Below, one piece after another: positions 2,991 through 35,300 of a stretch of DNA of 64,000 nt. Source of the stretch: Selaginella moellendorffii (taxonomy: Eukaryota > Plantae > Lycopodiophyta); assembly GCF_000143415.4 (NCBI RefSeq), contig NW_003314309.1:1299897-1363896 (forward strand), given 5' to 3'. Position numbers and translations under genes: made by a program. Every line of letters begins with the position of its first letter. Within the stretch, counting starts at the first letter, position 1. The notes below the pieces were generated by a model. That model ran no database searches. It saw only the letters and a program-made list of their open reading frames with translations, and was not told the origin of the DNA.

Positions 2991-3399
2991 CAGGAAAAAC
3001 TGATGAATGTTTTAGTTCTATAAAAACTCTATATATTAATAAATGAAGTTAAAGTTCCATTTTTAAATAAATAAATAAATAATTTAAAATTTAAAATATT
3101 TAAATCTTTGGGATAATCACTAGATTTAATTTTTTTTAATAATAAAATAGGTATATTAGTTTAAATTTAATGAACATTATTCGTTTATTCAAATTAGGCA
3201 ATATTTGAGAGGTATGGGGTTGAACCTTGTTTTTTTATTAAATCATAATAATATAAAATAAATAAATTTATTAATAAATTAAAATAAATAAATTAAAACA
3301 ATGAAATTTTTATACAATTAATGTAATCCTTATAAACCAACATCAAGTCTTGCATTTTGTACTTTGAAAGTGGACGATGATAGAAGTTATAATGCCATT

Positions 3400-5511: not shown

Positions 5512-8500
5512 TTATGCCCTTTCTTCTCCAATGCACACACTAATGTGTTTGTTTTTCATTCTAGATTCTTTCCATGGCTAATGGTTTTATGCCAATATGA
5601 ATTATGCAAATTTGGGTAGTTTTCTTTAATGTGGCAATTTACTAACTTGTTGAGCCTTCTGTCCTACTAAGGCTTCCCATAGGCTACCATGGGAGTAGTG
5701 TTCCAAAGTACGCCACTATCACTATATAACTTTTTCTATAGTCCACCACTACAAAGATATAGGATTTTAGAGATGGCAAGAGACATTTATTTTCTAGATA
5801 TTGTTCCTAGTGTGAAAGTATTCTATCCACATGGCCAATCTTTAGATTCTCTGCTGATATTAAATGCAATCACCTCATATGTCGTAGCAAAAGTATGTGT
5901 CATCTGTAAATTTTGGGACTAAAATTCATTAGAATTTTGTAGAGAACCTTTATCTAAAACTAGTGTATATATCAATTTTGCAGCTGTTAGGTATGTGCCT
6001 TGTGTAGAGCCAAAAGAGCATAGTGTAATTGCCATAGGTTAACCAATTTGTTAACCTGCTAGTTAAAATTTACATAGTGCAAAAATTGTATATATAGTTC
6101 TAACTTGAACTTTATCATGTATATGTGGTACCAATCCATACCTATGTGTAAAAACCAAGATTTGTTTAAAATACTATTTTGGGAGTCACATGTTACAACA
6201 ATTTAAACACATATATGTTTTTGTTTTTTCATATATTTTGCAAGTTTGTACATTTTTTTGTCAAGCTGCCCAAGGTTTAGAAGAAGATGGTTGGACAGAA
6301 GCAACCAAAGAATATCAAGGCTGCAATAGAGTGTAGGGAGAAGGGACTACTGGAAGTTGGTGTTGTCCCATTGCAAACCTTGGTGCTGTCTCTGTACAAA
6401 CCTTGCAAGCTAAGTCATAGTGAAGGCTATCAATATAAAAATGTATGATCTAGTGGCCTTCCTTCTCCACTCCATATTGATTGTAATAATAAGTTTAAAA
6501 GCACTAGTTATATGTCTCAAGATTCTCCTCTGACATATGCCTAAGACTGTGCAGTTCCACAATGATGCTTTGATTATTGGAGGTGCAAACTTATATTGTT
6601 TCCCCATACAACATTAAGGAACTACCAAGATCATTATAATTGAAAAACATAGGGTTCACCATCTAACAAAATTCAATAATAAGTGCAATGTAGTCCCTAA
6701 ATTGATCATTCTCCTTGTCGAACATCTTTTACTGTGAGTGAATGACATCAAGTCTTGAACATCCTCACATCCATATCCATAGAACTTTTGGCAAGAGTTG
6801 TAACAACTTGATGTTGATCCTTGTCTTATCTCAAATGAGCAATACCATGTTGATGCAGTATTGATGAAGTTGATAGCAATTCCAACCCAAATGACAATGC
6901 AAATGGCTTCATGAGGTTTAGTGAGGGAAATCCAACAAGTGTTAGTATTGCTCTATAATTCCATATTAACCTTCAATTTATAAAAAAATAAATTTGTGTG
7001 TTTTACATAGTTTTGTTTAGATTTTATTGTTCTCTACTTTGTGGACCTCGACAATGAATTTCTTGAGCCAATAATGGAAGTTGGATCTCTAGAAGAACCA
7101 TATGTTCTTCTAAGCTTTACCTATGAGATAAATCATCCTCCTTTTAATTGTACAGCCATCAGAAGAACATCCTCTAGTATAGCAAATGGCTAGCTCTATT
7201 TTATTCAAAGGGGAAGATCATAAAGTTTACTTGTTTGATTGATGTCTTTGTTGCCAATGGGGGCTGCCCAGCTCCACAACCATAACCTTAGCTCCATGAC
7301 CATATGTAGAGCATTGCTAGCAATTGTTACTACTGTTGCTTGCTAGGTAGCATGGTCGTAGCATGATTAGATAAGGAAGCTCCACACCCAAATCATGCGA
7401 GAGAAAGAGAAGAGAGAGGGAGAGGAAGGAGGAGAGGAGAGGAAAGAGGTGAAACTTGTGGTTAAAATCTTAAGAAAATCTTTATTTTTATTATATGATA
7501 ATTAAAAAGTAAATTATTAGAATATTAGATAATAAAATAAAATTAATAGTTATGAGTACATGAAATATAGAAAGGGAATATAGAAAATGTGTATATCAAT
7601 TAGCCCAAAAACCCTAGCTTATATATAAAATGAGTGGTCTAAATTAAAACTAATCCAACAACTACCAAAATCCTATTATGCTAATATTAGTATACAGCAT
7701 TGTAGTTGTACACTTGGTCCTCACATCATCCCTTCCTCTCAGAATAATGGAAAACCATTAGGGTTCTCTTGTAGATGGGTTGGGATTTGGAGGAACGTCA
7801 AGAGGAGGCATTGATGGATCTATAGGTGGTATCAATTGTTCTTAATCCTTTTGTATGAAGCATTTTAACTACTGCACATGCACAATTTCTAGAGGATTGG
7901 TCTGTTGGACATCATGCTGAACATCATAAACTTATGGCCTAACTTGTTGCAACACTTGATGCAATTCTTTCCACTGAGCAAAGAGCCCCTTAAATAAACC
8001 ATACTGTAAAATGGGGAAAATGGACTAACACCAAGTCATCCACTTTGTACTCCATAGGTGGATGATGATAGGATTTGTAGTGCCGTTGTTATCCCATTTG
8101 TACGTAGTCTAGATGTTTGGTAAACTTTGCTTAGACAAGTGGAAGAATGCTTATCAAATATTAATCCCACAACTTAGTATTGGTAGCTCGTAGCAATTGC
8201 GAAGGTAAACCCAGCTCTGTTGGTAATATTGGATCATGACCATATAGAAGTTTATATGGTGAAACACCAACAAAACTCTACACCCCTGTGACATATGCAT
8301 ACCGAAGAGATGGCAAATAACCATCCCAATCTAAATGTTGAAAGTTCATGTACGTCATGATTCCTTTGAATGTTCGAACGAGCCATTCCACCAAACTGTT
8401 TGACTATGGATGATAAGCACTCGTGAAAGTGTGACATATCCCCAACCAAGACATCAAAACATGAAATGCCTTAGCCATAAATGCAAGACTATTATCAGAA

Positions 8501-9632
8501 AGAATCCGCTCTGAACAAGAATGTTGGAATACCATTCAATTGAGGAGGAAGTATCTAACAATAGTTGCAGACGTGCTAGCAAGAGCACCAACTTCCACTC
8601 AATAAATCAAGTACTCAGAAGCAATAATAATATACTCATTGCCAGTAGTTGATCGTGGAAAAGGTCCCATAAGATCAAACGCCACCAACTCAAACAAACG
8701 GGAAACTGCAATTGACTCCAACCGTCTTTTCACAACACGAGGGGGAGTATTACGAGCTTAGCACTAAATGCAACTATGCACATACCGGATAATATCATGT
8801 CGCATCTCCAGCCAATAGAAAGACCTGCATAACTTCTCGGTCACACAACGATGTTCCATATGCCCATCTAGAACATGAGAATCATGGTAGGCATGAAAAA
8901 ACTGTGGAATAAATATTGAAAGCACCATCAGCCGTAAATGATCATCAGGATCCATCCCCACAAAATAAAGAAAGCCATCTTCAAGATGATATTAAGTAAA
9001 TGCTAGAATCGCAAGTCATCAGCAAGTGATGCAGGATTCTTAAACCCATCTCAAAGCCTTTAAATCCATGGCTCAATCTTTTGAGCCTCGTGAACCTTAT
9101 CAAGAGAAATAGATATTATTTTGCACCTTATGAACATTAAACATCAAGTATAATAACCGCTGACAGCATAAAATCCTCATCTAGAAAATCCACAGATGCT
9201 AGAACAACAAGCTCATCAAAAAAATAACAAAAGAGCGAAGAAGGAAGAGGAGCTCAAGAAAAGGCATCAGCATTAACCATAGAACTCTTTGGGCGATGAA
9301 CAACATCAAAATCATATATTTGAAATTTCTAAACTCACTAAGCAAGACGACCAACTAAGTTTTTTTACTTCAATAATGAAGTAACGGTAGCATGATCACC
9401 TTTTAGTAATGTCTGAGAACCATGTAAATATGCATGAAGTTTCTCAAAACCCCAAATTGATACTAAACACTCCTTCTTTGTCGTGGAGTAGTTCACCTTT
9501 GCTGGTATTAATATACGGCTGATGTATGCAATGGGATGGCACTGACCAGACACACTTGGGCACTTTTGCATCAACACACCTCCAGGAGCATCCATGCACA
9601 AAATGAAAGGTCAAGTGTATTCAGGATACACC

Positions 9633-10220
9633 TGTGAGACACAAAATCCCTAGGCCCCAAAGTGGAGCCGGAAGGGCGCCACGTGGTAGTGGTTGAAGCG
9701 AGAGCCAAACGAGCGTAACACGTTTGGACCAAAAGCTCCGACTTGAAAAGTCAAGAGCGGGAGTGGAACTCCCAACAAAGTGCTCGAGGAACGAGCACGA
9801 AGCGAGCAATAAGCGAGGCTCCAAAAAGGGACCCAAAAGGACCAACACATGACACGTGGAAGTGTCCGAGATGGACTCGAGATGGAGTCCAAAGTGGAGT
9901 CCGAGATGGACCCGAGTTGGAGTCCGAAGTGGAGTCCGTGATGGACTCGAGTTGGAGTCCGAAGTGGAGTCCGAGATGGACCTGAGTTGGAGTCCGAAGT
10001 CGAGTCCGAGATGGACTCGAGTTGGAGTCCGAAGTGGAGTCCGAGATGGACCCGAGTTGGAGTTCGAAGTGGAGTCCGAGATGGACCCGAGATGGAGTCC
10101 GAGGTGGACCCGAGATGGAGTCCGAGATGGAGTCTGAGATGGAGTCCGAGATGGAGTCCGAGATGGAGTCCGAGATGGACCCGAGATGGAGTCCGAAGTC
10201 GAGACCGAGACCGGGACCGG

Positions 10221-10252
<32 letters not shown>

Positions 10253-11397
10253 TCGGGACCGAGACCGAGACCGAGGCCGAGGCCGAGATCGGGCCCGAGC
10301 CCGAGTCCGAGTTCGAGTTCGAGTCCGAGTCCGAGTCCGAGTCCGAGTCCGAGTTCGAGTCTAAGAGGGTGAAAGCCCAAAGCGTTCGTCTCCCAGACCC
10401 TGGGGGGTTTGGTGAGCTCCAAAAGTATAGTAGGGGGAAGACTGTGGTGGAGCCAGTTTGGCCAGGAAAGGCCAGTTTGGCCAGGAAAGGCCAGTTTGGC
10501 CAGGAAAGGCCAGTTTGGCCCAGGAAGGCCGGACCCAGTGTTGGGTGATGAGCTGCCCACTGGGAAGTCCAAGACTAGAGTGAACACAGACCGACAAGCG
10601 GGGTAGCTTGGTGAAGTGTTCAAGAGCCGGCTCTAGTTCCCCCGGGAGATCGACTGGCCGATGCTCCCAGTCCAAGTGTGGGTGGCACTACCTACTTGGA
10701 TACCTGGTGTGGCTCAACGGAACCCACTCTAAGCCCATGGCTAGAGCACCCAAGGGCAGAAGGCGAGGAGAGTACCCAGGTGGCTCGCGTAAGGCCACGG
10801 TGTTCCGAAATGTTGTCCCAAAGGCCCAGACTGTGGAAAGGAAGAGGAGCAGTCCTCTGGGGTAGTGACCAGGGACACAATCGTGTGGTGAGGAAGTCCC
10901 AGAGGACCGTGGGACTTAGCGGTCGGGCCTGTGGGTCTCGATCCAGTGGCAGTGTTGGCCAACACGGCCAGGGGCAGAAAGGGACTTAGTGGGGACTAAC
11001 AGAGGGATATTGGGGAAGGCTATTCCCCTTGTCGGTGGGCATCCTAAGGATGCTAAGGAGTGGATCTGAGATGACCACTCACGGATGGTTTGCCTAGTCT
11101 TGGAGAGCCAAGATGGTGATGCAAGTGGTATTGGACTACCAGTGTGGCAAAGGTGATTGGGCATGGCCTTAGCGTAACGGGCTGCTATGTCGGTGGTACC
11201 TTTGAGTGTCGGTCATGGGATCGGACACGTGGAGCACTTGGACCAAGTGCAAATGTTGAGTGGCATGGATGCCATTCTCAGGGCTAGCAAGTCCCAAGTC
11301 CTGGATTGGACTTATGGAGGTTGTGAATGAGACTCCTCCAAGTGGTCAGAGGTGTGGTTAAGTGACTAAAGTAGAATGGAAAATTTAGTCGCTTACA
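9633..11397 (+). mobile_element. Solo LTR, family A, inserted in Gypsy pol
   Basis: TGTGAG...CTTACA ends; TSD ACACC at 9628-9632 and 11398-11402; same sequence family as the LTRs at 32388 and 38161. Confidence 0.95.
9866..10360 (+). repeat. Tandem 6/12-bp repeats (GAGATGGAGTCC, GAGACC, GAGTCC) inside LTR A
   Basis: Direct reading; the same arrays with different copy numbers occur at ~32676-33128 and ~38400-38860. Confidence 0.95.
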
Positions 11398-12687
11398 ACA
11401 CCAAAATTGGAGGAGTCGTCAAAAGCACTTTGAGATCCATGAATGCCCACTCACAGTTTGCAAACCACTTTAGCAATGCTCACAATAGTGCAGTGCAATC
11501 AGAAAGATGATCCACAAAACGATTGAAATACTGCACCTTGCCCAGGAAGTGCTGCACATCATTTATAAACTTCGGAGTAGGGAACTTTAGAACAGCCACA
11601 AATTTATTAGGATCAACTTGCAAACCCTCACGAGAAATACAATACCCAAAATAAGTTGTGTCCTTGGACCCAAACATGCACTTCGACCGCTTCAGCTCTA
11701 AACCAACATCCTATAACCGATCCAACACTTTATAAACATCACGGACATGTTCCTCCCACGTCCCCTTCAAGTGGATCAAGACATTATCAATGAAGTCAGT
11801 AGTCACCTTTGGCATATCACAAAGAACCTCATCCATTGAAAATTTGCTAAAGCATTGTTCAAACCAAACGGCATCACCAAGAACTTGTAAAAACTAAACG
11901 GTGTACAAAAAACAGTCTTAGGAATATTTTCTTCGGCCATCGGTACTTGCCAATACCCAGAAGTAAGATCTAGTTTGGTGAACTAATAACTTCTCCTTAG
12001 ACAATCCAAGAGATCAGTAGTGTGAGGAAGAGGGTACACATTTAGGATCATCACTTCATTTAATGGATGATAGTCGATGCAGAAATGAATATTCTCATTA
12101 GCCTTCGTCATAAGATGAGGTTCACATGCCCAAGGATTTTGTGAATTTCAAATAATACCTTTTTCCAACATCTCCTTGACATTTGTATGTAGAATCTTGA
12201 TCTCTTTGGATGATTGATAATGAACATGAACCTTGATTGGACGAGCATCCTCAATTGGAATCAGATGACGTGTGGCAATCTTGGCCCTAGATGATAAGTC
12301 AAATTCAAAGAGATCGATATACTCCTTCATGAGCAAGTCAACCACTGCAACATAAAGACCATCGAAGGGATCAGAAAAGGGAAGAGCGAAACAAGATAAA
12401 AACATAAAAGGAAGTAATGAGGAGACAAAAGTAATGGAAGTAGAGGTAGAAGCAGAGGGACAAAAAGGTACAGAAGTGAGAGGAATGAATGAAATATAAG
12501 TATGAGACAAGGGGCGAAGCCTCAAAGTCACACTTGGCATGATTGCATTGCAACCAATCCATACCAAGGATGAGGTCAAAAGCTTGACTCGGCACCACTT
12601 GCAATGACTACAATCCAAGCTCAAGATCACCCACATGCATAACTAAGTCCGCTTCATCCCATGCATATGCATGTATATGACCATTGC

Positions 12688-13295: not shown

Positions 13296-13320
13296 TAAGC
13301 TCTATTTCGTTAAAGTGGGA
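13296..13320 (+). repeat. Left TIR
   Basis: Exact reverse complement of 26992-27016. Confidence 0.95.
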
Positions 13321-14939
13321 TTTATTCAGTAAAATGGGACTAAGTACAAATTTTCAAGTATTTGAAAATGACGTGAAATTATATGTTTTTTGTTCAGGGG
13401 CTAGACATATCTGGGGCATGGTGACTAGCGCGGTGACTTTGTGTCCAGACTGAGTCCATCTGGTTGTATAATAAATCTCATTGTCAAGGTGAACAAGCCG
13501 AATCTGAAGCTAAAGAAGAGCGATGGCATGCACGCACACACTATTTGTTTGTTCATTGAGCGTGTGGTGAGCTTTCCAAGATGAACGTCATTCCTATTAG
13601 CCAGACATATAACTTAATGGTGAGAACATTTAGATATTATTCAATGTTATCTTTTTCTAACGAATCTAATTGTGAAGGTGTAGTAAGAGGCATTGCTAGT
13701 TTGGAGAAGTCATTTAACTCATTTGACCCTTAGTGTATTTTCATGAAACTAAATAACATTCATATTATTAAGGAATTTCTCTAGTACCTTTTTTTTACGA
13801 CATAGAGGCTTGCATTTCTTTCAAAGGTGATTTAGTAAAAGGCCTGAGGGCACATGCCATTCTATTTCTCAGACCGGTATTAAGATATACTAGTGCAAAG
13901 GGAAAAAGGTATTTGGTGATCAAGTAAATGGCATGAGGGCACACGCCATTATAAGCTTAAGCGCTAGTGGACACTTCCTTTTTGGTACTCTCAGTGGTAC
14001 TATCATCCTTCTCCGGGTCAGTTGTTTTGCTTTGGATTGTTGTCTCTGACGTTACTGGGGTGTTCTTGATAGTTGTTAATGTTGCCATTTGTTCAGAAAA
14101 ATGATCACCTAGAGTATAGTACGGGGAGTTTGGAAGACTTATATATTCTACATTTTCACCTATCTCCTTCTCTGTCTCCTTTTCTGCCTCACTTACAGAT
14201 TTTGTGCTTGCCATGAGAACGCTCTTCACCCTAAAATATGGAGTTCGTTGTGTTATAAAAGGAAACCAACACACACGCTGCAAGGGAATGATGGTACATA
14301 AAGCACGTAAGCCCACAATATGGGTTTATGTGCCATTAATATGGGCCACACGCCATATTATTAGATTTATGCACGTGTGATTAGTAAATGCATATGTCAC
14401 ATCATCTTTGTTTTACCTCACACACTATATCAGGCCTAATGAACCATATCACATGTGCGCACATGCTATATATATGGAGAAGTATTATGCAAGGATAGAA
14501 AAATTCAATGCATGATTGTGGAGAGCAATGGCATGAAGCCACATGCTAAATAACATTTTAGAGAAAGAATTAAAATAAAAACATGCAAACAGTACTGAGT
14601 GGACCAAGACTTAGAAGTGCACAATTGAATGAGGTATTTCTAATAAATATTTCACTCACCTCATATAGGAATGGCTACCACTCTCAAATGGCGTATCGCC
14701 TCATGCCATCACCTCGCAATTTGTTATAACAATCCGATGAATTCATATTCGGCTTGTTCACCTTGAACTTTAAGTAAGATTTGCTAGAACAACTAAGAAT
14801 TTATACTTGTTATTTGTATCATCTCACCTAGGAATGGCGTAAGGCCACATGCCATCACGCCTCCTCTGATTCAGATTCAGATTGTTCACCTTGAAATAAA
14901 ATACATTAGAAACTTAGTAAAGGAATATTAATGAATCTC

Positions 14940-17751
14940 ACCTTGAACCCGGGTTATGAATGCTCTTGCTGCATCTCTTGCATGGTCTGGCAAGGTGATG
15001 GTGGCACTCTGCTTCCGCATCCAACCATGCACAACATTATCCACCGATATGCTCATGCTGGGATCCCTTGGATTCAGCACCTATCTCTTTTCTAGGCAAT
15101 CCTTCGTATATCCGGAACTTGGCTTGAACCACTCCACAGTTACATTGAAGGAGTTAGTTTCCGCGTCCTCCTTTGCATCAGTGATGCAGCGCCCCACCCA
15201 TATCATTTGTTTTTTATTACTGGGTCTGACAAGCACGACCATTCCTTTGCAGACCTGTACTGGATTGAATGCTGAATCCGGCTTCTTGTTCCTCGGCCCA
15301 CAATAGTGATCCTCAACATCGTTATCTGTCACTGCATTTCCAGAGGACATTGTTCCGCTACTATCTGGTGCTCTGGGTTCTGGCCAAAATGACTCTTCCA
15401 ATTCTTCATTTACAAGGCCCATTTTGGATAGCAGATATAATCTTCTCCCAGTATTCGAGCAAAGGCTTGCACCTCTGAAAATAGGATTCTCCACCAAACA
15501 CCAACCCCCTCTTCCAGAAGGCAATATGCTGTCTAATCCCGGCCACTATACTTTCCTGGCCTTTGAGTCCATCCGGGTGCATCGGCCGTGGGGAACTCTG
15601 AGGAATCATAGGTTCCCCAGTTATGGGATCTCTCTTGAAGAGTTCAATGCCGTCCACTGGCAGCCACACTGTGTCCCATTCTCTCATCTTGTACCTCATC
15701 ACTGGAGCACCGTCACGCATGCTGAAATGAAACTGAAGAGGCTTGGAGTGGCCAATCAGCGTTTCGGATCCGTCCCTGATGTAGCCTCTTACAAACCCCT
15801 TAAAGTCTGGAACCTCTGTCACAAGTGCAGCTTCAACAGTGCCTTTAATACAATTTTGGAATTCATCGTAGAGTTGTGGGAGGGTGAGGACATTGGATCG
15901 CCGGAGGGACTCTGCCAGGTGACTGAACATGGCATCGACGTCTTCATGAGTGTGCCCAACCATGAGAAAGCCAAGTGTAACCGTTTCAAATATGCCTTTG
16001 GCAACAAGCATCGCCAAGTACGCGAAGACATACATGTTTTTGTTCTCACTGCCAGCATTGTTTGTTTGGAGCAGAAGATGGGGTGGAAGGCCACATCGGC
16101 CGCAAGAACTTCCTTGAGATTCTGCTTCGTTTGGATGAGGCTGTGCATTCACCGGGCGACCAGCCTCGTCGGAATGGCATGAGGCCTCACGTGATAACCC
16201 TACAATTTGACGGCCAACATATTCACTGGGATGGCATGGGGCCCCACGCGATACTGCAAGCCTTTGCTCCTCCTCCAGCTGAACCCTGTATGGGGTTCGA
16301 TCGACAAGGGCCTTATGCAAGGGTTGGCCGTTCAGCTCAGTCTGCGCACTTTGCAGAGACCTTAAGTGTTTTGCTAGGGACGCAATCATCTTGTTTGCAC
16401 CCCCGCCACCCCATAGAGGTACAAAGAAGTTCCCATAGTTCTGGGCACCATGCCCATGAGCGATTATGCCAAACAGAGACACAGGCAGCTACATGGATGA
16501 AGAGATTGCCTTGGGGGCAGGATTGAGTCGAGGTAAGCACGTCTTTTTCTGGTCCATTTTGTCGTGGATGATGCAGAGGTAAGAGTCAGGTCTCTCCATT
16601 GAGAGAATCCTGTTATGATAATATGCAGTCCTGCAGCTTCTCTGCTCGATGTTGTGGTCGAGCCGCCTTCTAACCAACGTCTCTCGCTCTTGAGCGATGC
16701 AAGAATTCTTCGACAAAGCCATTTTGATAGCAGTGCACTCGTCACACTTTGAAAAGCTGGAGTACTTTCCTATACTCACATCCCTGAACCTGTTGCTCCA
16801 CAATCTACTAAATCTAGATTGGCTCAGCTTCCTGTAGCCATTACTCTAGAGTTCCCGATTCACATCTTCCAATATGGCCCCCTTGGTATACATGGAAGGG
16901 AGAACTCGTTGGGTGTCTCGAGTTCCATCTTCCAAGAGGCGGGTTTTATGTGGTTGCTACTCGCTACATGTCTCGACAAACCTTTTGAAGATTGCCTCTC
17001 CATATACAACATGACCCCTGGTTTTGTGAGTACCGTCGTTCCCATGGACTGCCTATTGAACCCTTTGTTCCTCGAACTCAATTTTGATTCTGTAGAATGT
17101 GGTTCGAGGGACTCCATAAATGATTCTCCATGCCTTCATGCAGACCAAACCCCTCTGGAAGACCATGCCCCCCACCTGATGTTCTAAAGCATCAATAGAT
17201 GACCGTAATGCCTCATACACAAAATTGCGAGCTGCCTTCCAGGACAATGTCTTGTATCTTGCTCTCTCCTCTTCAATAGCATCCCAATCAGCATGTTGAC
17301 AGCACCTCCTCTTGCAACAAGCAACTGTCGAGACCATTCGAACCTCCATCGCCATTTTCTGCCTTTTCGGTTCGTTGCTCAGATCCCTTTGGCTGTGCTT
17401 TAGGAAGGTGTACTTTCTTTTCCCATGAAGAGATGTTCTGTCATCAGTTGTAGTGGTGTTTGATTGTGAATCCTTCACATTCTCAAACACTAAGTGCCTC
17501 AATTTCCACCGCACAATGCTTCCAATAGTCAGACTGTTTTCTTCTGTGTCAACAACCTCTAAAATCGCAACTCCAATATCATCCCAGCCCAATTCTTGAT
17601 TAGCAACCGCATCTCTTGGAACGACAACTGTGGCTAAGCCCTCAGCTACCACCTCCCCCTCGGGGTTGTTTAGAAACACCTTTGCCTGAATCCATGTAGC
17701 ACGGTTCTTAAGATCCACGGAGGGAACATGCTTCGCACTTGCGGAGGCCAT
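14940..17751 (-). pseudogene. Transposase (DDD/E RNase H fold; Sola-like), inactivated
   Basis: ORFs 17053-17751, 16489-16803 and 15406-16482 share one frame broken by TAG stops. Motifs: CCKRRCC..VCMKAWRIIYGVPRTTFY (Cys/HTH-like), KCDEC..H, HDKMDQKK, LQT(N)NAGSENKN, GHTHEDVDAMF. Frameshift into 15081-15524. Confidence 0.85.
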
Positions 17752-18371
17752 TCTGAAAGTGCAGAAAAGAAGTTAAGACCATACAAAAAATGATTGGAGA
17801 ATGGCCTAAATCATAGCATACCAAACAACGTCAATAGCATGAGGCCACATGCCATTATTCAAACATGCTATTGACACCCACGTGAAATTTCGCATTCACA
17901 AAATTGGCATGAGCCCTCATGCCATCTTGATATACACATAGCTGCAGGCAAGTAAAAACATACATGACAATACGCTAGCCATGAAATTGCAAGGGCCCAA
18001 GATGGCATGTGGCCTCATGCCATTTCTAAATGTGGTCCTAAGCCATTCCATGGTGAACATACCAGGAAGCACAAGTGCCGAATATCAAGAGGAAGCGGTA
18101 GCCACACCAAAGACAGTGCCGCTCGCAACACCGCAACTACTCGTAGCGCCGCTCGCAACACCGCAACTGCTCGTAGCGCCGCTCACACAAACTGCCACTC
18201 GCATAAACTGCCGCTCGCAATGGCGCTCGCAATGTCGCAACCGCTCGTAGACGCATAAACCACAGCTCACAACACCGCTTACACAAGCAACGCTCACTGC
18301 GCTCAGCGGAATTAAGAACACGGCGCACAAAAATGATAGACCTAGGAATGAGTTCGAGAATTCAAAAATAA

Positions 18372-20283
18372 CACACGCTTGAACGTCACATCAAATCCTC
18401 TGACAAACCAGATCTTATGATTCCTCTGACAAATTTCAAACTAAGTAGCTTCTAGACTTTGCTGTCGGAGGTTGAACTTTGTCACATCATGTCCTTGCCT
18501 CGATCCAGCTGTGCCATGTCAGTGATTCGAACTTTGCCATGCCATGTCAACGATCCGCGCCAAGATTATTCGCCGTGTAAAGGAATAATTATGCTGTGTG
18601 TGTACGTCCATTTATGGCAATATAAGGCCACACGCCATTCAAAGAATAATGCTAGTCGAGCATTTTTGGGTTCAAAATTGCATGAGCCCACACGCTATAA
18701 AGTTTACTTGTACCAAAAATAGAAACAGCTTTATTTACTTGGGAATTTAAGTGGTTGAGGCATTTTTAAACTTACAAACACATGCCCTACTTACATTCCT
18801 TTGGTTGCTTAAAATTCAAAAATATTATAAACCTTTCTTTTTGCATTTTCAATGTTTTCAATTATGGTTTTTGATTTTCGCAGGACCAGCCTAGTAATCT
18901 ATTTGCATCCCATCATGTTTATAGCTAGCTTTCGTTTGTCCCCTTCGCTAGCCTGAGATACATCTACTCGGCATTTGCCTCTTACAGCATTTGCCCAGAA
19001 AGGGCATCTTTCTTCACGCAGCATTTGCCACATGTTTAGGGTTTAGGGTTTAGGGTTTAGCAATTCAGTAGCTTGATAAACATGCAAATACAGAACTTGA
19101 TGCAAAATCCTTTGATATGTCACAATGCCTTTAGGACCATAAATACATTTCAATAGAGAGGGTCCTTTCATTTCATAACTCCTTACATAGATCTTGGTGA
19201 AACCAGAGTTAGTGAAGTTAGTTTCTTGTGATCCCGCATCTGATTGTGATGTCCCTTTGCAGTGTCGATGGAAAGGTCAATGCACACCAAACTGTAAAAT
19301 CTTGGAGCAAAATAACGGTCGGATCTATGGCAAATGCCCCTGAAACATTGTAAGGCTCGTGTGGTCTCATGTGGTGTCCGATCGAGATGCTTCTTTGCAG
19401 GGTCATCAAGAAAGACACTGTATACCATTCTGTAAAATCTAGTTGCGATCTAACGGTTGGATCTCCAGAAAACTCAAAAAAATCTCGCGCGTGTCAGAAT
19501 ATTCTAGGAATATACTCCTATGTGCCCCTGAAAATGGCATGCGGCCCCACGCCATTCAAGAGATAACGCCAAATGACGCCGAGCATTTTTTGGTGCATTT
19601 TTTGGGATCAAAATTGCATGGGCCCACACGTTTGAACGTCACATCAAATCCTCTGACAAACCAGATCTTATAATTCCTCTGACAAATTTCAAACTGAGTA
19701 GCTTCTAGACTTTGCTGTCGGACGTTGAACTTTGTCACATCATGTCCTTGCCTCGATCCAGCTGTGTCATGTCAGTGATTCGAACTTTGCCATGCCATGT
19801 CAGCGATCCGCGCCAAGATTATTCGCCGTGTAACTGCTCGGCATCTGCCTCTTACAGCATTTGCCCAGAAAGGGCATCTTTCTTCATGTAGCATTTGCCA
19901 CATGTTTAGGGTTTAGGGTTTAGCAATTCAATAGCTTGATAAACATGCAAATACAGAACTTGATGCAAAATCCTTTGATATGTCAGGACCATAAACACAT
20001 TTCAATAGAGAGGGTCCTTTCATTTCATAACTCCTTACGTAGATCTTGGTGAAACCAGAGTTAGTGAAGTTGGTTTCTTATGATCCCGCATCTGATTGTG
20101 ATGTCCCTTTGCAGTGTCGATAGAAAGGTCAATGTACACCAAACTGTAGAATCTTGGAGCAAAATAACGGTCAGATCTATGGCAAATGCCCCTGAAACAT
20201 TGTAAGGCTCGTGTGGTCTCATGTGGTGTCCGATCGAGATGCTTCTTTGCAGGGTCATCAAGAAGGACATTGTATACCATTCT
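18372..20283 (+). repeat. Internal direct duplication in the transposon intergenic region
   Basis: ~18372-18580 matches ~19625-19833, and ~18965-19432 matches ~19835-20283 (the ORFs at 19183 and 20035 are near-identical). Confidence 0.9.
19034..19060 (+). repeat. Interstitial plant telomere repeat (TTTAGGG)n; second copy at 19904-19923
   Basis: GTTTAGGGTTTAGGGTTTAGGGTTTAG. Confidence 0.9.
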
Positions 20284-20951
20284 TTATTTAGCTGAACATC
20301 TGGCATTTTTGGAAATACAAGATGCTTTGGAATATCCAATCATGCATGGTATAAATATAGCGAGGGTATTAAATGATATCCCAATCATGATCTTTCTTTT
20401 GGATTTCGCGTGCATGCAGTCCGAGGAATGATGACGTTGTGGATTTCTTTTGGATTTCACGTGCATGCATGCGCGCGGCGATCCAGAAATTAATGGTGGC
20501 GCCCAAGTCCGAGGAATGATGACGTTGCGGGATTACCAACCGTCGTGACATTTCGCGCATGTGAGGTTAGGTTTTGCATCGTACTCGCGCTCGCACACTC
20601 GCGCTCGCATCGCGCTCCCACTCATGATCACGCTCACATTCGCGCTCATCTACCTTCTCTACAGGTTTCTCGTGTGCATCGGCGTCCACTCGCGCTTGCA
20701 TCACACTCGCGCTCGCATCGCGCTCGTGTGGATCGGCGTCCACTTCAAGACACACCCAGTTTGTAACTTCGCCGCCAACTCCGCCGCCCACTCCGCCACC
20801 CACACGCAGCCCACTTGGCGTCCCGGGAGATTTCAGCGCCACTCTCCAACTGTAAGTGGCAGAGTAGCCTTGCTGCTACGATCCGCTGCACACACAGTGC
20901 ACATTCGCCAGCGAGTCTGGCCTCGATTGTCACGCCTCCATTCGGCTTCAA

Positions 20952-23900
20952 ATGGTAAGTCTTTTAGGCCAAGTAGAAAATGGCATGAGGCCACATGCCA
21001 TTCAGTAGCAACATTGGCATGCACCGATTGGGCTCTCGAGTGCAGTCCGGTTACAGATGGCGTGTAGCCTCACGCCATCTTAGGATGCAGCCTCAAGACA
21101 TCTGATGCAGTGGTGAATGGCGTGTGGCCTCACGTTATTTCCAGCTGCTAGCTTTTCATCTGTCAGCTCTAATTGTTGTGCATTTCTGAACAGGCGAGGA
21201 ATTGCGTTCTTCTTCCAGCCACTATCAATGTGGATGCAGAGAAGGGGGAGGAGCTCACCAGTTGGACTTTCGGGATGGAAGGCGAGGATCTGAGGCTGTA
21301 CAACACAGATGGTGGGAGAAAAGAATGCATGGGGATCCTCATCCAAGTGACAGACACTCCATGCAGTTCCATGCAAGAATATGGACTGGCACTTGTGGTA
21401 GAAACAGCGTCCGCCTTCAAGATCCACCTTGCACATCCTAGTGGCTTCCCGGAGGGGGGCAGCGGCTATGAGGAATTCCTAGAGGGAGCTAGGGAGAGGT
21501 TGTCCAGGAGGCCCACAATTTCAAAGACGCTGCGGGTCTATGAAGATCACATGGAATCCACGGACCTCACCTACGGCGATGTTCAAAAACTATATTCCAA
21601 CATTGAGCCGTTGAGAGTGCCTCCAGTTCGCGAAGCGAAGGGGAAGGGGGTCGATCTGGAAACTACCCCGAAGCAGAAAAGGGTGGTCAAGCTCAAGCCG
21701 ACGTCCGACTCTCCTGCTCCAAAAAAGAAGCTACTCGGTGATGCCATTGCCTCGGGTTCGAACACTACACCCACCAAAAAGAAGAGCTGCAAAGAGCAGA
21801 AAGAGCAAGAAGAGGCAGCAAAAATCGTCGCAGATAATAGTACTTGTTACTATTCCAACAAAGTATATACAATCGACGTGAGCCGTATCGACATCCAAAG
21901 AAAATACAACCACAGGCTAGTATCTGATGAGTGGGTGGAGAAACTGAAGCAGAAGATGCTGGCAAGTCCAATAACACCCGACATCGCAGACGTGATCCCC
22001 TACTACCGAACAATGAAGGGCGAGACGAGGTTTCCAGACTTGATCAATAGGAAGGTGTTGGACGATCAGAACATCCGGTTCTATGCCGTCTTCGGGCAGC
22101 ATTCTAGCTTGGCGATGCAAGAGATAGTTGTGGATATTATTGTGGGCGAGGAGGTGAAGAAAGTCTTCAAGACAAGAGTTGTCCGCCTGATAAAAGGCAA
22201 CTTGCCCCTCCGATCTATCATATACATCTCCCACGTGCAGAATGTCAAGCAAGAAACGTGCTACAAATCGGGTCTGCATGAGACATTGGCACGAACACGG
22301 AAGCTCTGGGTTCAACTAAAGAAGCCACAAAAACCAGGACAAGGACGTGCACTAGCAACTAGCGCCTGGCAGGTAAGCCTCGTTGCATGTGGCATAGCAT
22401 GTGGCCTCACGCCATTTCCATTGCAGGAATTCTCGAGTCTTCTCTCGAAAACACTGGGGGTCAATGACACACTCAGCATCCATAACATTCTACTCGCGAC
22501 AAAAGTTGTTTTTGACAAATGGGTAGATGTGCTGAGGAGGTACCATGACGGGGAGTTGCTAAACTCAATGGGTGTGGAGGACGGCCGAAAGCCCAATGAT
22601 TTGAAGCTCAACGCCTTGCGTTTCTCGCGGTCTCTAGACGATGACGACCTTCTGACAGTGGCTAATGCTCTTCTACGTGGTGAGGTAGTCTTCAACAAGA
22701 CCAAAATGACTCCCGGCCATATTGTGACATACGAGGACTTGTGCACGACTCTGAGAGCTCGTGCGCTATTGAAGGATTGGATCTTCGAGCAAGTGGCTGT
22801 GGAGAGGGTGAGCATCGACACCACGCAAGAGATGATGGAAGAGCTGGAGTTGTCAAATGAAGACATCGACGAGTACGTGAAGGGGGCCCCCAAGTTCATC
22901 GATCTGCTGCGGGATGCCACGAAAAGTAAAGCTGAGAAGTTGGATCAGTATCCAAATTTCATTAAGAGGGATGTCGACTGCCGGCTTCAGAAATAGCTCG
23001 ACCCCGCAGCAGAGGCCTATCGAGAACCTTACCGGGTATACGTGAATTCGGATGAGGATCAAAGGTGGAGGAGCATCGTTTCCCGCGGAGATGAGCAGGT
23101 CAAGAACATCTTTTGTGTGATGGACTTCACAAACGAGGAGATCACTTATGCAGACGAAGTCAGCTCCATCATTGACTTAATGGTGGGACTTGCATAGGTG
23201 GAATCTTCAGTCCACTATATGATCTACGACTCCGAATCCTATCACAAGTTCTGGAAAGCCTTGAACGAAGTGAAGGCTTGGTTGAAAGGCAAGGAGATGC
23301 GGGAGATCCATGGGATAATGGCTAAGAAGAAGATACCGACGAATGTCCGCATCTTCACACTCGCCCTTGTTATTGGTCCTGCAGCAGAGTGGGACTGGAG
23401 TGACTTCCCAGCTTCGTTCGACAAGGCCGATCGAATTGATCTGAGGGAGGTCAATTTACCCGTGCCTGAGGAACTGAAGACGGCTATGGAGCTTTCGAAT
23501 CCAGAGAAAGCTCCAGGTGCAGCATGGGAAATGCTCAGCTGGGTCTTCAACGCAATAGCGGGTGGGTCACCTGCTTCCAACTCCAAGGGCAAATGCGTTG
23601 TCGAGTACAACTGCGGCGGACTATTCTTTCGAGCCGCACTACTCAAGGGTGTCCCGTGTGTTGTGGTGACAAACTCCATTGAAGAGGTGACTTCAATGGA
23701 GCATATAATTACAGTTGCCAAAGAAAAACAGTATCTTCTCTGCGAACCTGGTGAGTACGCACTTTAAGTTTAAATGTTATCTCACAAGCTCTGTATGCAG
23801 GAGCGTGGCCACCCCCAGATGCTGAAACGGCGTTAACAGCTACTGTTGAAGATACCCATGTTGGGCCGAGCTCACAACCTGCACAAGGTAAGGTCACGTA

Positions 23901-26573
23901 AGGCCTCACGCCATTTTGATTATAGATCGTTCTGAATATTCAGACACGAGGACTGAAAATCGCACTGGTGGCGCGTCGAAGAAGGACAAACAGACAAACA
24001 ATAGGAAAAAAGGAGGTACAAATTATATTTGCAATGGCGTGTGGTCTCATGCCATTCCTTGCAGGAGACACTTCTTCAAAGGCAAAACAGGCAAGCACCA
24101 GCCAAGCTCAAACTGACAGTGGTCATAAAAAGTGAAAGCACGTTGGACAGTCATCGGGATCAGAGGCGTTTGAAAAGGAAGAAGGGCAACGTAAAGATGA
24201 TAGGTAATGCCTCGCGGTTATGGCATGTGTGCTCATGCCATTCATTGCAGATCAAGGGCTGAGTGAAAGCAGCCAGTCACCACCTCCTGACTCAGATTCC
24301 TATGGCGGACTCCCCTTCCCCAATCTCAATGGAGAGGTACAATGGATGAGGGATGCTTTTCAAGTCAGGGCCACGTTTTTCTCATCTCGTCGTCTTCGAA
24401 GGGTGCAAGAACGTGTAGAAACCATGTTAAGAGAGTCGGGTGAGGATACGGTCCTAGGTCACGCACTAAAACAGGCTATGGATGTCTTGTATTTTGAGAT
24501 GGAGACTCGGCCAGATGATTTTCCCAAGATGGTCCTAGAAGAACAAGCCATCCAGCCTAAGCAGCCTATGGAAGAAATGCAGGAGGGGGATGAAGAGCCA
24601 GAGAAAGATAATGAGCAGGAAGAGCAGAAGGACGAAGAGGAGGACAAAGAAGAGGAGGACGAAGAAGAGGAGGATGAAGAGGACTTGGATGGTCCTCACA
24701 ATGGTGACGATCACAATAACGATGACGACGATGATGACGACGATGGCCAGCCTGAGGTGGCCAAAGAGCAGCGGAGGAAGGTCATACAAGACAAACCATC
24801 AGGTAAATAATAGTACATCCATTCCTAACCTTTTACCATTTCTAACATTGTCCATGTAGGTCGCAGAGCAAATGGTAAGTAGAGATTATTCAGTTGAATT
24901 AAGATACAAACTCTAGCCTTTAGTGTCGAGGAAGGATAGTGCCAAGCAAGGGTCGAAACGTATGTCCAATCCTTCAGAATCAGCAGTGCGCCCAAGTGAT
25001 ATTGGTCCTAGTTCCTCAATAGCAGTTGATGGTAAATACAGTATAGTCGATTCAATGTGCTAATGAGTTTGTTTTTAGTAGCACGGGAGGATACCATCTC
25101 AATCGAAGGTAGATATTTGGACATGCATATGGATCCGCCAGTGGACTCTACTTGCCTGCAAGAGTCATTAGAGCTGGTGGAGGCTACTATCCATATCAAC
25201 GCCAAGCAAGCTGACCACGCTCCACTTGATGCTGCCCATACCACTGAGTCAATCTTGTCCACGTATCCAACTGACGGTGACCAGGCGCCATTGGACCCGC
25301 ATGAGGCCGCCCCAGCCGCCGAGCCAGTCGTATCCTCATTTCCAACGAACTCAACGTGTGCCCAATCGTCTAACTACGCGCCATTGGAACCTCCCTACAC
25401 CGCCCCTGCTGCCTGTTCGGTCATGTCCACTTTGCCAACGGAGGCACCAGCTGAAATGGCGTGTGATCACACGCCATCGGAACCACCCCATGCCACTGTT
25501 GAGCCAGTTGTACCAGAGTCTACAGCTGAAATGGCATGTGCCCACACGCCATCGGATGCGATTGACCCCACATTGCAGAGGAGAGTATTTCCGCCCTTCA
25601 CGTTTCCTCGACCAAAACCCTCTCAACGACCATCGGGAGCACCATTCGCTAATATTGTAGATGGTAAAATTGACTTGTACCATTTTTTATGCTGACACAT
25701 TTCATTTCAGAGTCACGGCAAAGGTATTGTATCGTTTTTGATCTGAACGGTGTCCTTTTCTCCCATGAGCGTGGCTCGTCCTCGAATGTCACTGCACCCT
25801 CCAAAGCCTACGGTCGCAAGTTGGTCAAAAGAGACAGATTCACATTAATCACACAGGAGAAACTGCGGGATCTAATAATGACCATGCGACACTTAAAACA
25901 GAGGGCCGGGTTCAATTTGCAATTGGGAGTTTGGACATCCATGATGCGCCACAATACATTAACGTTGCTACAGATGATGCACGATCAGATGCGAGTAATA
26001 TTACCATTTGACTTTCTCCTAACGCAGGAGGATTGCTTGACTATGGTCCATGTGAGGGGTAGCAAGCCCATCTTTGTCAAGCCAGAGGCTGTAGTGATGA
26101 ACCGGACTGCTAGGTCAAGTGAAATCCTCATCATCGATGACTCGCCGATTAAAACTGCAGCGAACACGCACACATATGCAGTGCACCCCATCTCTTGCAG
26201 TATGGAAACTAGGGAGAAGAAACCGTATGTTCTGGGGGACCTTGCAAAACGGCTTAGAGCAATGGTGATAGAGAACCGGCTAGTCCAGGAGGTGGCTGCA
26301 GAAATCAACCAAATGGCAGATGGAACGGTATATCAGAAGTCATTTGATCGGACAAACACCAGTCATCATTTATGGCATGTATATTGTCTAGCCAAGCACT
26401 ATCTGCATCTCCATAATCTGCTCAACCGGATGGGTTCTTCGACCACTGAACATGAGCGTGGACGTATTAGAGAAGAGATGGCATTACTATTGGGTTTAAA
26501 TCCTGATAGTGTGGAGAGTGATGAAATTCCAAGATTATTGTATAGGCGTTGGAGGCAAAAAATAACAGTCTGA
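20952..26573 (+). pseudogene. Transposon accessory gene (~1,640 codons, ~11 exons): ParB/Srx-like, degenerate DNA amino-MTase-like, acidic tract and FCP1/NIF-type HAD phosphatase
   Basis: Phase-consistent GT-AG model: 20952-4, 21194-22372, 22427-23750, 23801-87, 23944-24015, 24065-24203, 24251-24802, 24860-74, 24924-25031, 25082-25663, 25711-26573. Motifs: NHRLVSDEWVEKL..FYAVFGQHSSLA; NPEKAP..KGKCVVEYNCGG..AALLKGVPCVVV; FDLNGVL..VWTS..FVKP..IIDDSPIK. Two TAG stops and one +1 frameshift. Confidence 0.7.
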
Positions 26574-26991
26574 GATGGCATGTATTTATTTAAAAATGTA
26601 ACTTATTATGGCATGGGGTTCCATGCCATTGTATTAATATTAAAAGATAATTCTTTGAGAAGATTTGCATTATACTAGAAGTGTTACAGCATGTTATTGG
26701 AAGTCTACGAAGTTGTTTTATTAATAAGGGGAAGGTAAAGATTGAATGGGGACTTGGGCTCCACCTAGACTCGGAGCAACTGAGCCAATATTAAAAGGAT
26801 GGAAAGAAATTGGACGACGATGACAAGGAGAAGAGAGAGGTGAAGCAGTGGCAGGGGGAGGAGAAGTGATTGAGTAGACATTTCCTTGTTTAAAATAAAA
26901 TGGCATGTGCCTCAATGCAGTTGAATTTTGTTATATTTATATACTATATAAAGGTTTGGAAACCTTATTTTACAAGTGGGATAATGACAAT

Positions 26992-27016
26992 TCCCACTTT
27001 AACGAAATAGAGCTTA
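26992..27016 (-). repeat. Right TIR
   Basis: TCCCACTTTAACGAAATAGAGCTTA. Confidence 0.95.
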
Positions 27017-32387: not shown

Positions 32388-35300
32388 TGTGAGAAACAAA
32401 ATCCCTAGGCCCCATAGTGGAGCCAAAAGGGTGCCACATGGTAGTGGCCAAATCGAAAGCCAAACAAGTGTAACGATAGAAGTAAGAGCTCGTAGCAAAT
32501 CCCAGAAACAATAGACCTCCAATGAGAAGTTTGGACTAAAAAGCTCCGACTTGAAAAGGTCGGGAGTGGGAGTGGAACTCCCAACGAAGTGCTTGAGGAA
32601 CGAGCACAAAGCGAGCAATAAGCGAGGCTCCAAAAGGGGACCCAAAAGGACCAACACATGACACGTGGAAGTGTTCGAGATGGACCCGAGTTGGGGTCCG
32701 AAGTGGAGTCCGAAGTGGAGTCCGAAGTGGAGTCCGAGACGGAGTCCGAGGTGGACCTGAGATGGACCCGAGGTGGAGTCCGAGATGGAGTCCGAGATGG
32801 ACCCAAGATGGAGTCCGAGATAGAGTCCGAGATGGACCCGAGATAGAGTCCGAGATGGACCTGAGATGGAGTCTGAGATGGACCCGAGATGGAGTCCGAG
32901 ATGGACCCGAGATGGAGTCCGAGATGGACCCGAGATGGAGTCCGAGGTGGAGTCCGAGATGGACCCGAGATGGAGTCCAAAGTCGAGACTGAGACCGGGA
33001 CCGAGACCGAGACCGAGATCGGGACCAAGACCGAGACCGAGGCCGAGGCCGAGACCAAGCCCGAGTCCGAGTCCGAGTCCGAGTCCGAGCTCGAGTCCGA
33101 GTCCGAGTCCAAATCCGAATTCGAGTCTGAGAAGGTGAAAGCCCAAAGCGTTCGTCTCCCAGACCCTGGGGGGTTTGGTGAGCTCCAAAAGTATAGTAGG
33201 GGGAGGACTACAGTGGAGCCAGTTTGGCCAGGAAAGGCCAGTTTGGCCCAGGAAGGCCGGACCCAGTGTTGGGTGATGAGCTGCCCATTGGGAAGTCCAA
33301 GACTAGAGTGAACACGGACCGACAAGCGGGGTAGCTTGGTGAAGTGTTCAAGAGCCGGCTCTAGTTCCCCCGGAAGATCGACTGGCCGATGCTCCCAGTC
33401 CAAGTGTGGGTGGCACTACCTACTTGGATACCTATCGTGGCTCAACAGAACCTCCCTCTAAGCCCATGGCTAGAGCACCTAAAGGCGAAAGGCGAGGAGA
33501 GTACCCATGAGGCTTGCGTAAGGCCATGGTGTTTCGAAATGTTGTCCCAAAGTCCCAAACGATGAAATGGAAGAGGAGTAGGCCTCTAATGCAGTGACCA
33601 AGGATACGGTCACATGGTGAGGAAGTCCCAAAGGATAGTGGGACTTAGTGGTCAGGCCTGCGGGCCTTGATCTAGTGGCAGTGTTGGCGAACACGGCCAT
33701 AGACTAAAAGGGACTTGGTGGGGACTGGAAAAGAGTTGTCGGGGAAGGCTATTCCCCATGTCTGCGGGCATCCTAAGGATGCTAAGGAGTAGATCTAGGA
33801 TGATCGCTCATGGACAGATGGCCCAGTCTTTGAGAGATAGGATTATGATGCAGGTGGCGTTAGACCACTGGTGTGACCAAGGTGAATGGGCATGGCCTAG
33901 CGTAATGGGCTGGTATGTCGGTGGTACCTTGGGGTGTCGGTCATGGGATCGGACACGTGGAGCACTTGGACCAAGTGCAAAGGTTGAGTGGCATGGATGC
34001 CATTCTCAGGGCTGGCAAGCCCCAAGTCCTAACTGGGACTTATGGAGGTTGTGAATGAGACTCTTCCAAGTGGTCAGAGGTGCAGTTAAGTGACTAAAGT
34101 AAAATGGAAAAATTAGTCGCTTACAACTTGGTATCAGAGCTGTTCCTTAGTCCGACTTTTATTGGTGCTCAAGTATATCACCATTGATGTTGGCATCGGA
34201 AGGTCCTAGGAGTGGGCCTGTCCTTGAGGAGTATCATGTCGAGAGGACATGGCTCTCCACTCAAGTTCACGCGTGAACTTGGGCACAATGTGGTGGATAG
34301 AAAAGGGCCAATAATGGAACGACTTTGGGATCTTGGGAACAGTATAAGGGTTTCCTCAGAGAGCTAAGGATGTGATCCAGATGAACGTTTGACGCAGCAA
34401 ACGGGCTAATGTAGTTGTGGTAAACAATTATAGTTGGGATCACGGGGAAGATGTAAACTCCAAAACAATAAAGGAGTCACAAAATTACCCTCATATAGTT
34501 GAGGCTAGTGCTCATAACTTTGAGACATGAATTGATGACCATGGGAGGTCAAATACGGAAGAGGACACAAGTCCTTGAAATGGTAGTCGGGGCTACCTCT
34601 AATAAATGCTGGAACAACCCAGGAGTTGGGGGTGTACTCAGAGGATGAGTTGGTATTCTCATCACATAGACAAGTGGTCCTAAGGGGCAAAAGGTTGCCC
34701 CAAGAGAACAAATCAAGTGTCGGAGTAACACTTGCAAAGATGGTCCTTGTGAGCAAGACCTGAATACAAGAAGTTGTATTCCAGTGAGTTGACACCTCGA
34801 AAACTAAGACCTCTCAGGTCGTTGGATTAGCAAAGTCTAAAATGCTGGATGACTCAAGTGGAGTCAGGAAATAGTCCTAAGGGATTGGTTGAAGCATTTG
34901 GACGGAGGTGTATGGTGCCCCATGAGGTATGGGGAGGATCATAAGATCCAAGTATGAGAACAGTGAGTATCTCATTGATGGCAGAATGTGCCATATTAAA
35001 GTCGTGGGAAAGATGTTCCCAGAAGAAAACAACTTTGGCCCAGAGTTGGGTGCAAACACTATGGTGCAGTGCTAACGGATAGTTAGCATGAGGAACAACT
35101 ATATTGGTCTCGGCAAAAGACCTAAACACTAATAAGTAGTGTTATAAGGATAGGCTCGTGGAGCCGATGGTGTGGAGACGGTGCCAAGGCATGCTGCCTT
35201 GAGGTCAAGTTGGCGGGTTCATGAAAACCCCGTCCAAAGGAATCCCAATGGAAATGGGAATGGCATAGCTTAAGCTAGAAAGCATGCGGTTAGAGTGTGG

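Follow-up and report, generated by a model that had tools for sequence, protein, structure and literature searches.

The window analysed here is a 64,000-nucleotide stretch of the Selaginella moellendorffii genome (contig NW_003314309.1, positions 1,299,897 to 1,363,896 of the forward strand; positions below count from its first letter). It contains a 13.7-kb DNA transposon with a transposase gene and a long accessory gene, in which one 22-bp palindromic word recurs as 24 copies across introns, spacers and even coding DNA. The main features of the element are as follows.

13297..27015: whole terminal inverted repeat (TIR) DNA transposon of 13,719 bp, a decayed copy of a multi-copy family, delimited by the TIR pair and contig ends
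13297..13323, + strand: left TIR, starting AAGCTC; 24 bp perfect, 26/27 matching
26989..27015, − strand: right TIR, the matching inverted repeat
14944..17754, − strand: transposase gene, DUF7869 DDE/D-type (Pfam PF25273, E 3e-40); 3′ end (~14944) approximate
20952..26573, + strand: accessory gene, starting at ATG 20952, divergent from the transposase, with ~10 predicted introns
~21850-22372, + strand: ParB/DUF3723-like region of the accessory gene (the name is a lead only)
22427-22990, + strand: helical domain of the accessory gene
23020-23749, + strand: possible degenerate amino-methyltransferase-like region (the name is a lead only)
between the regions ending at 23749 and starting at 25711, + strand: acidic stretch of the accessory gene
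25711-26570, + strand: NIF/FCP1-like HAD region in the last exon (FDLNGVL..., IIDD); weak Pfam match (E 4e-4), under the cut-off

Contigs assembled from public runs of one organism covered the transposon end to end. A shared terminal contig has its start at 13297 and a second one its end at 27015, and at the left end foreign flanks are joined on, which implied that the element belongs to a multi-copy family. No target-site duplication (TSD; 4 bp expected for Sola elements) was found in this copy. Its flanks differ from each other and correspond to non-contiguous parts of a repeat resembling a long terminal repeat (LTR), suggesting that this copy may be rearranged or mis-assembled. Forty-two differences from the family majority were examined (33 of the 40 listed rows, besides which 192 more exist, and 9 further family-majority rows). 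The results showed that 37 are of the C-to-T type and that 27 of these stand in a CG or CHG context, a pattern that fits a methylated, decaying copy in a plant. A sister or non-autonomous element of lower depth shares the first 44 bases (13297-13340) and then diverges; a palindromic site with 2 mismatches lies in the unrelated sequence of this same-ended element, ~50 bp from its end.

The transposase gene is broken in this copy by four in-frame TAG stops and a frame break near 15415, and family contigs differ from this copy at two of the stop codons. The acidic motifs HDKMD, QLD and HEDVD are conserved in the transposase relatives, the second catalytic Asp being Asn here; the 24 longer relatives range from 640 to 1180 residues, and the named ones include a protein of Riccia sorocarpa. 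The named relatives of the two proteins (Riccia, Calypogeia, Selaginella), together with TTTAGGG runs in the element, point to a non-seed land plant as host. The transposase is probably Sola-like, an affiliation which we take from a general resemblance of DUF7869 rather than from comparison with named Sola1 sequences. The passages on Sola elements in PMC5751038 and PMC4455052 give no diagnostic sequence, and no paper with the term 'DUF7869' was found in the literature searched. The accessory gene is broken by stops and by a frameshift near 24171, where the family contigs hold more bases. Its introns were predicted from GT-AG ends and reading frame. Intron 22373-22426 is the sole one backed by relatives, which lack the 18 residues that it would otherwise encode. 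No splice joints were seen in two public runs guessed to be RNA, and intron 1 is retained in a contig that crosses it; we regard this as neutral evidence.

To define the palindromic site, the whole window was searched with the strict pattern ATGGCRTG-N6-CAYGCCAT. The search returned 10 exact matches, every one with a spacer of 6, and the same arms with spacers of 0-5 or 7-15 gave none in the window. When up to 3 mismatches were allowed, 24 matches were obtained, all between 13523 and 26921. A symmetric weight matrix likewise gave 24 sites of at least 12 bits within the element, against a chance level of 0.05 sites per shuffled element copy (100 shuffles), and not one site of at least 8 bits in the remaining ~50 kb of the window. 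The matrix set takes in the site at 23893 (4 mismatches, 20.5 bits) and leaves out the weak one at 26900. An earlier note on this DNA had reported about 25 copies between 13839 and 26921. The number agrees well with the matrix set, only 10 of its 24 sites being exact; the range gains a further site at 13523, before its start. Every position named there was recovered, including three copies in accessory intron 1 (20980, 21057, 21117), one in each of the introns 22373-22426, 23888-23943, 24016-24064 and 24204-24250, three 5′ of the transposase (17834, 17904, 18002) and four in coding frames (16174, 16231, 25456, 25531). The sites are listed below.

13523..13544: 2 mismatches; inverted duplicate of the 14834 unit
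13839..13860: 2 mismatches; flanks in common with 13928
13928..13949: exact
14448..14469: 3 mismatches
14528..14549: 2 mismatches
14688..14709: 1 mismatch
14834..14855: 1 mismatch
16174..16195: transposase variable loop, 2 mismatches
16231..16252: transposase variable loop, 1 mismatch
17834..17855: 5′ of transposase, 1 mismatch
17904..17925: 5′ of transposase, 1 mismatch
18002..18023: 5′ of transposase, exact
18677..18698: intergenic, 2 mismatches
19534..19555: intergenic, exact
20980..21001: accessory intron 1 (20955-21193), exact
21057..21078: accessory intron 1, exact
21117..21138: accessory intron 1, 2 mismatches
22394..22415: intron 22373-22426, 1 mismatch
23893..23914: intron 23888-23943, 4 mismatches, 20.5 bits
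24034..24055: intron 24016-24064, exact
24220..24241: intron 24204-24250, exact
25456..25477: coding, EMACDHTPS, exact; in the first of two 75-bp tandem units within a low-complexity linker
25531..25552: coding, EMACAHTPS, exact; in the second 75-bp tandem unit
26608..26629: 3′ of accessory gene, exact
26900..26921: weak, 3 mismatches; under the matrix cut-off
near 14335, 18615 and 19613: further weak or half sites

Analysis of the 24 sites led to the consensus ATGGCRTG W GGCC W CAYGCCAT, in which C5, T7, C15, A16 and A21 are invariant in 24/24. The 8-6-8 spacing, nearly invariant according to the earlier note, is fixed, and the variability that it ascribed to the spacer was found only in part, since the spacer itself has the consensus W-GGCC-W. 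The two W positions carry the same letter in 14 of the 24 sites (AA in 7, TT in 7), which makes the site a pseudo-palindrome with a direction. Positions 6 and 17 (R and Y) vary independently of each other (A-T in 8 sites, A-C in 8, G-C in 4, G-T in 3; Fisher P 1.0), and arms without pairing covariation favour a protein site on double-stranded DNA over a hairpin. The variable arm step is CG or CA/TG in 47 of the 48 half-sites, which reflects either simple deamination or a reader that would accept methylcytosine and thymine alike. In the element stretch 13297-14900, which holds 7 sites, none of the 15 differences from the family majority falls in an arm, with about one expected, so that the shortfall is not significant. 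Over the same stretch the family majority has one spacer base changed and no arm base, suggesting that the degenerate sites are degenerate family-wide.

The flanks of the sites are mostly unrelated, with a mean best-orientation identity of 14.8/50 over the 276 site pairs. Clearly common flanks were found for the pairs 25456/25531, 13839/13928 and 13523/14834, and a weaker likeness for 14688/14834 and 16174/16231, which implied that the sites multiply at least partly by local duplication. The view that the copies stand in unrelated contexts was therefore right for most of them and overstated as a whole, since 25456/25531 is clearly a tandem duplication, 16174/16231 probably is, and two more pairs have flanks in common. 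Taken together, the fixed spacing, the five invariant arm positions, the missing covariation and the mostly unrelated flanks are what a site for a dimeric protein would be predicted to look like, as had been proposed.

The placement of the sites is uneven. Coding DNA is avoided, with 4/24 sites in the 56% of the element that is coding (P 8e-5, on an approximate gene model). Four of the 24 lie within 1 kb of an element end, where 3.5 are expected, and neither TIR contains a site; this absence of end enrichment argues against the usual subterminal transposase sites. Five of the 10 predicted introns carry a site (seven sites together) and the other five carry none. An introner origin of the short introns was considered and rejected, as the sites are internal to the introns, stand at variable distances from the splice sites and in many cases lie outside introns altogether.

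Several other repeats were observed in the window. Two copies of a micro-exon-like unit (GEQSESESEEA-type), each with a palindrome after it, stand at the transposase 3′ end (14640-14950), and an inverted copy (13484-13530) lies within 13430-13560. Between the genes, within 18372-20286, 18372-18580 is duplicated at 19625-19833 and 18964-19434 at 19834-20286 (93-97% alike), and these duplicates carry short TTTAGGG telomere-like runs. Contig depth falls at 19676-20159 and contig joints skip the stretch, so it may be specific to this copy. Short direct repeats rich in CGCTCGCA at 18100-18280 and 20580-20740 lie in the two likely promoter regions of the element. Outside the element, a 1.7-kb LTR-like repeat is present in three copies 84-91% alike (9633-11399, 32388-34127 and 38161-39856), with internal 6/12-bp tandem arrays (GAGTCC/GAGACC).

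To find out how far the palindrome extends among related elements, 80 loci with related transposases were compared. The window motif, at up to 2 mismatches, occurred in 0/80, and several of these loci contained palindromes of their own. The palindrome GCTCAAAC-N4-GTTTGAGC is carried by L001, L002, L003 and L005, which form a starred clade of the transposase tree; L004 has 7-10 copies of a TTTGGCCATATGGCCAAA palindrome upstream of its transposase; and a TTGGTGGCCACCAA palindrome is found in the AT-rich clade L012/14/15/23/40. L010 contains CGTCGGC-TGCCC-GCCGACG six times with unrelated flanks. Two CGTCGGC-N5-GCCGACG sites of L010 lie in the transposase open frame, where AVGCPPT and PVGCPPT are read from them, much as EMACxHTPS is in the window. 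The distant L068 and L055 also bear palindromes of their own. When seven motifs were counted in 20 sequences, the table was block-diagonal and followed the starred clades of the transposase tree, the strays amounting to a single count in L055 and to two among 59 further loci. Because the motifs were chosen from these same loci, only their recurrence in sister loci is independent. A de novo scan found at least three copies of a dyad in only 15/80 loci, some of these being tandem arrays (L040, L014, L059), and at most two copies of any dyad in the other 65; the dyad count beat the shuffle maximum in 8 of the 18 loci tested. The arrays consist of dyad units of 42-46 bp or shorter near the related transposases (L040 1870-2730, L014 7150-7450, L059 24-420). 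In the distant DUF7869 element of L055 (features at 2590-3220, 7085-8086 and 8339-10870), five GGTGGCTG-N8-CAGCCACC palindromes were observed, and a frame upstream looks by eye like a C5 cytosine methyltransferase, with no Pfam match; a 563-residue frame of this locus has no detectable homology to the accessory protein.

The accessory protein was compared with proteins from other organisms. A HMMER search of 1.84 billion representatives gave 9 hits, of which 7 were kept and share a GQH core; P0025 and P0028 were set aside as false matches of repetitive sequence. Homolog searches by word index, run with the N-terminal part, returned nothing or only a known member. The accessory protein shares a conserved GQH core with proteins of Calypogeia and Riccia, and its downstream domains with a Selaginella protein. 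AlphaFold, run on 8-row alignments, gave confident helices only, and Foldseek and VIA-align returned no clear match (best Z 4.8 and 5.8). The helical domain in particular was modelled confidently, with no clear fold match. For the alpha/beta region, a query led by the relative P0037 weakly matched the S-adenosylmethionine (SAM)-binding region of N4/N6 methyltransferases (E 0.009; score 25.5, the best of 20 shuffles reaching no more than 18.7), and one led by the window protein matched the same region at E 0.31. The model of this region is a generic alpha/beta layer only (Z<6), and no DPPY-type motif is visible in it. Comparisons of the accessory protein or its relatives with PDB sequences, NCBIfam, PHROGs, phage genomes and viral contigs gave nothing informative.

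Long dyads of fixed spacing, private to a lineage and kept out of coding DNA are best accounted for by a dimeric reader encoded by the element. Judging from the sequence features, such a reader, either the accessory protein or the transposase, is probable. The accessory protein is favoured, because the sites spread along the element and crowd its introns and because its gene has ParB-like features, dispersed palindromes being what ParB proteins are established to read. We thus put forward, with slightly less than even confidence, that the palindromes may be family-specific sites at which the accessory protein encoded by the element lands as a dimer. The dimer would read the sites on double-stranded DNA, recognising them with its predicted ParB/DUF3723-like N-terminal part together with the helical domain that follows. 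By coating the element it would allow the genes to stay usable in the face of host CG/CHG methylation. Binding would protect or activate the element in the manner of VANC on VANDAL, and could involve ParB-like loading and spreading. Local duplication would give rise to new sites, and these would persist in introns and flexible linkers, where their cost is low. Self-protection or activation against CG/CHG methylation would, by analogy, be the likely purpose of the sites. Given the CG or CA/TG step of nearly all half-sites, the reader is predicted to treat methyl-CpG and TpG alike and so to bind silenced copies.

The ParB-like identity itself comes from language-model features (Atlas), which gave DUF3723 at 0.97 (199/256 features) with a recognition score under the tool's reliability line and, with DUF3723 excluded, ParB_N clusters at 0.92 for the N-terminal 175 residues. 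Several observations besides that low score weigh against a role of the accessory protein. Profiles from Pfam, NCBIfam, PHROGs and PDB lent no support to a ParB identity, AlphaFold gave a confidence score (pLDDT) of only ~35 over the ParB-like part and no confirmation of a ParB fold, and in profile comparisons with YbdM-like and SopB-like ParB sets shuffled sequences scored as well. ParB proteins bind cytidine triphosphate (CTP) through a GxxR motif. The position of this arginine is Ser, Thr or of Ala type (GQHS/GQHT) in 4/4 aligned proteins, against DGFHR in YbdM. The 80 related loci, among them five of 7-20 kb that bear palindromes, yielded no detectable accessory homolog, so a palindrome and an accessory gene are seen together only in this window. 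Five of the 11 closest loci lack a motif, though they are short (1.9-4.3 kb). The CG/CA variation at the arm step may be plain mutation, and this copy is itself damaged by methylation, so any protection failed here.

The main rival, possible though rather unlikely, is that the transposase itself, by way of its N-terminal Tnp1/En-Spm-like domain or domains, binds the palindromes, whether to autoregulate and activate its copies or to assist in bringing together the ends of so long an element. In its favour, the motifs track the transposase tree, most sites in the relatives lie directly 5′ of the transposase, and the palindrome bearers of the AT-rich clade have no detectable accessory gene in 7-20 kb. 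A relative's N-terminus gave a weak Transposase_23 match (E 0.043) and PF26133, and passages of bioRxiv 10.64898/2026.08.24.746577 report sequence-specific activation by transposases and by the transposase-derived TnpA. A correlation with the transposase tree, however, would be shown by any gene carried along on the element, the sites are neither subterminal nor present in the TIRs, and seven of them lie in introns of the accessory gene.

That the palindromes have no reader at all, being left over neutrally from local duplication or from some tiny inserting unit, appears improbable. At least four site pairs have common flanks, the direction of the spacer is kept as in copies of one unit, and the palindromes of L001 and L002 sit inside longer duplicated units. 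On the other hand, the arms are fixed and most flanks unrelated (as they also are for the copies in L010 and L068), sites persist within reading frames, several clades repeat the pattern with different words, and no target duplications flank the sites in the contexts listed. The clustering of sites 5′ of both genes and in intron 1, together with GGCC and CATG cores that presumably resemble plant factor sites, could point to a host transcription factor or chromatin protein whose site the element collected to secure its expression. This is very improbable, in view of the ~16 specified bases with a constrained spacer, the absence of the site from the 50 kb of neighbouring repeats and the wholly different motifs of related elements. 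RNA hairpins that control the splicing or stability of element transcripts are given hardly any chance. In introns 24016-24064 and 24204-24250 the stem does extend over the 3′ splice region (z -2.5 and -2.2), and in three introns the AG follows 9-11 nt after the site. The two further motif introns, however, fold no better than shuffles (z 0.45 and -0.97), covariation is missing, with 8 A-C mispairs at the variable pair, many sites lie outside the predicted transcripts and there was no match in Rfam.

A bolder version of the accessory-protein proposal would extend it to every lineage of these giant DUF7869 elements. Each would have its own long palindrome and, to go with it, a clamp of ParB descent in fusion with an inactive methyltransferase fold; the clamp would read methyl-CpG and TpG alike, load at about two dozen sites, spread over the 14-kb element, shield it from silencing and join its ends, in a kind of 'centromere code'. 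We consider this extended form unlikely. If it were true, a transposon of a land plant would have put a bacterial partition module to new use, and its protein-site pairs would be orthogonal by nature. A precise 22-bp candidate site, a candidate reader and the lineage palindromes of the relatives make the proposal of ParB-like self-binding directly testable with cross-binding controls. If self-binding holds, the sequence-specific self-regulation shown for VANC and TnpA in flowering plants would extend to a further group of transposons, likely in non-seed plants. Orthogonal and perhaps methylation-blind tools for DNA binding could come of it as well.

Part of the idea has been published before, for Sola1-1_Ec32 of Ectocarpus, PAG3 of Bostrychia and VANC of Arabidopsis. 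In the passages of PMC12477816 that concern Sola1-1_Ec32, a gene with a ParB-like part and an N4/N6 methyltransferase is proposed to bind and modify its own element. That element is also a giant TIR transposon (21.5 kb; termini AACCG..CGGTT there, AAGCT..AGCTT here) of the same layout: here too the accessory gene lies on the strand opposite the transposase and the element exceeds 10 kb. It differs in coming from a brown alga and in having a 282-bp TIR and a 4-bp TSD, against a 27-bp TIR and no recovered TSD here; in our element, moreover, no DPPY-type motif is visible in the methyltransferase-like part, and a NIF-like region closes the gene. The main text of PMC12477816 never uses the word 'palindrom'. 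PAG3, as presented in passages of bioRxiv 10.1101/2025.02.11.637652, is a ParB-like accessory protein, and inverted repeats of its Plavaka element are the proposed binding sites, a likeness to the case proposed here. It belongs to a red alga, with an EnSpm/Plavaka transposase and a 2-oxoglutarate (2OG)-oxygenase partner domain, neither of which was matched by Pfam here; its repeats form tandem arrays beside PAG3, whereas our sites are dispersed through introns and exons. The passages of these two algal giant-transposon papers name no binding sequence for the ParB-like proteins proposed to bind or modify their own elements.

For VANDAL21 of Arabidopsis, binding and demethylation by VANC21 have been shown by experiment (passages of PMC5735166 and PMC10398659), the protein binding a 9-bp motif in non-coding parts and introns of the element (PMC5735166). 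As in our element, the motif is family-specific, mostly non-coding with introns included, locally duplicated and changing between families. VANDAL21 differs in being a Mutator-type element with non-palindromic 9-bp motifs in tandem arrays, and for our element binding and demethylation would be parallels only. Neither a Mutator-family transposase nor the VANC family was matched here, the transposase being DUF7869 and the accessory frames having no such Pfam family, nor indeed any Pfam domain above the cut-off. Bacterial ParB/parS, in the part of PMC8367383 considered, resembles the present system in its several dispersed palindromes and in a protein with ParB-like features. It differs in that the CTP-motif arginine is missing here, the ParB fold is putative and the setting is a eukaryotic transposon, and no ParA ATPase partner was matched among the 10 element frames scanned. 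The Spm TnpA system (passages of bioRxiv 10.64898/2026.08.24.746577) likewise has family-specific motifs that co-diversify with the transposon lineages and are read by an element-encoded regulator, the motifs being non-palindromic and terminal there, palindromic and spread along the whole element here. Fusions of ParB-HTH to adenine methyltransferases are described for chlorophytes and chytrids in passages of PMC4738411. In the mostly non-subscription literature searched, we found no description of this element, its motif, dispersed palindromes in such elements or lineage-specific DUF7869 palindromes. What the present analysis adds to these systems is that related DUF7869 elements carry non-overlapping palindromes of their own, which follow the transposase tree and which, in one of them (L010), also lie in coding linkers.

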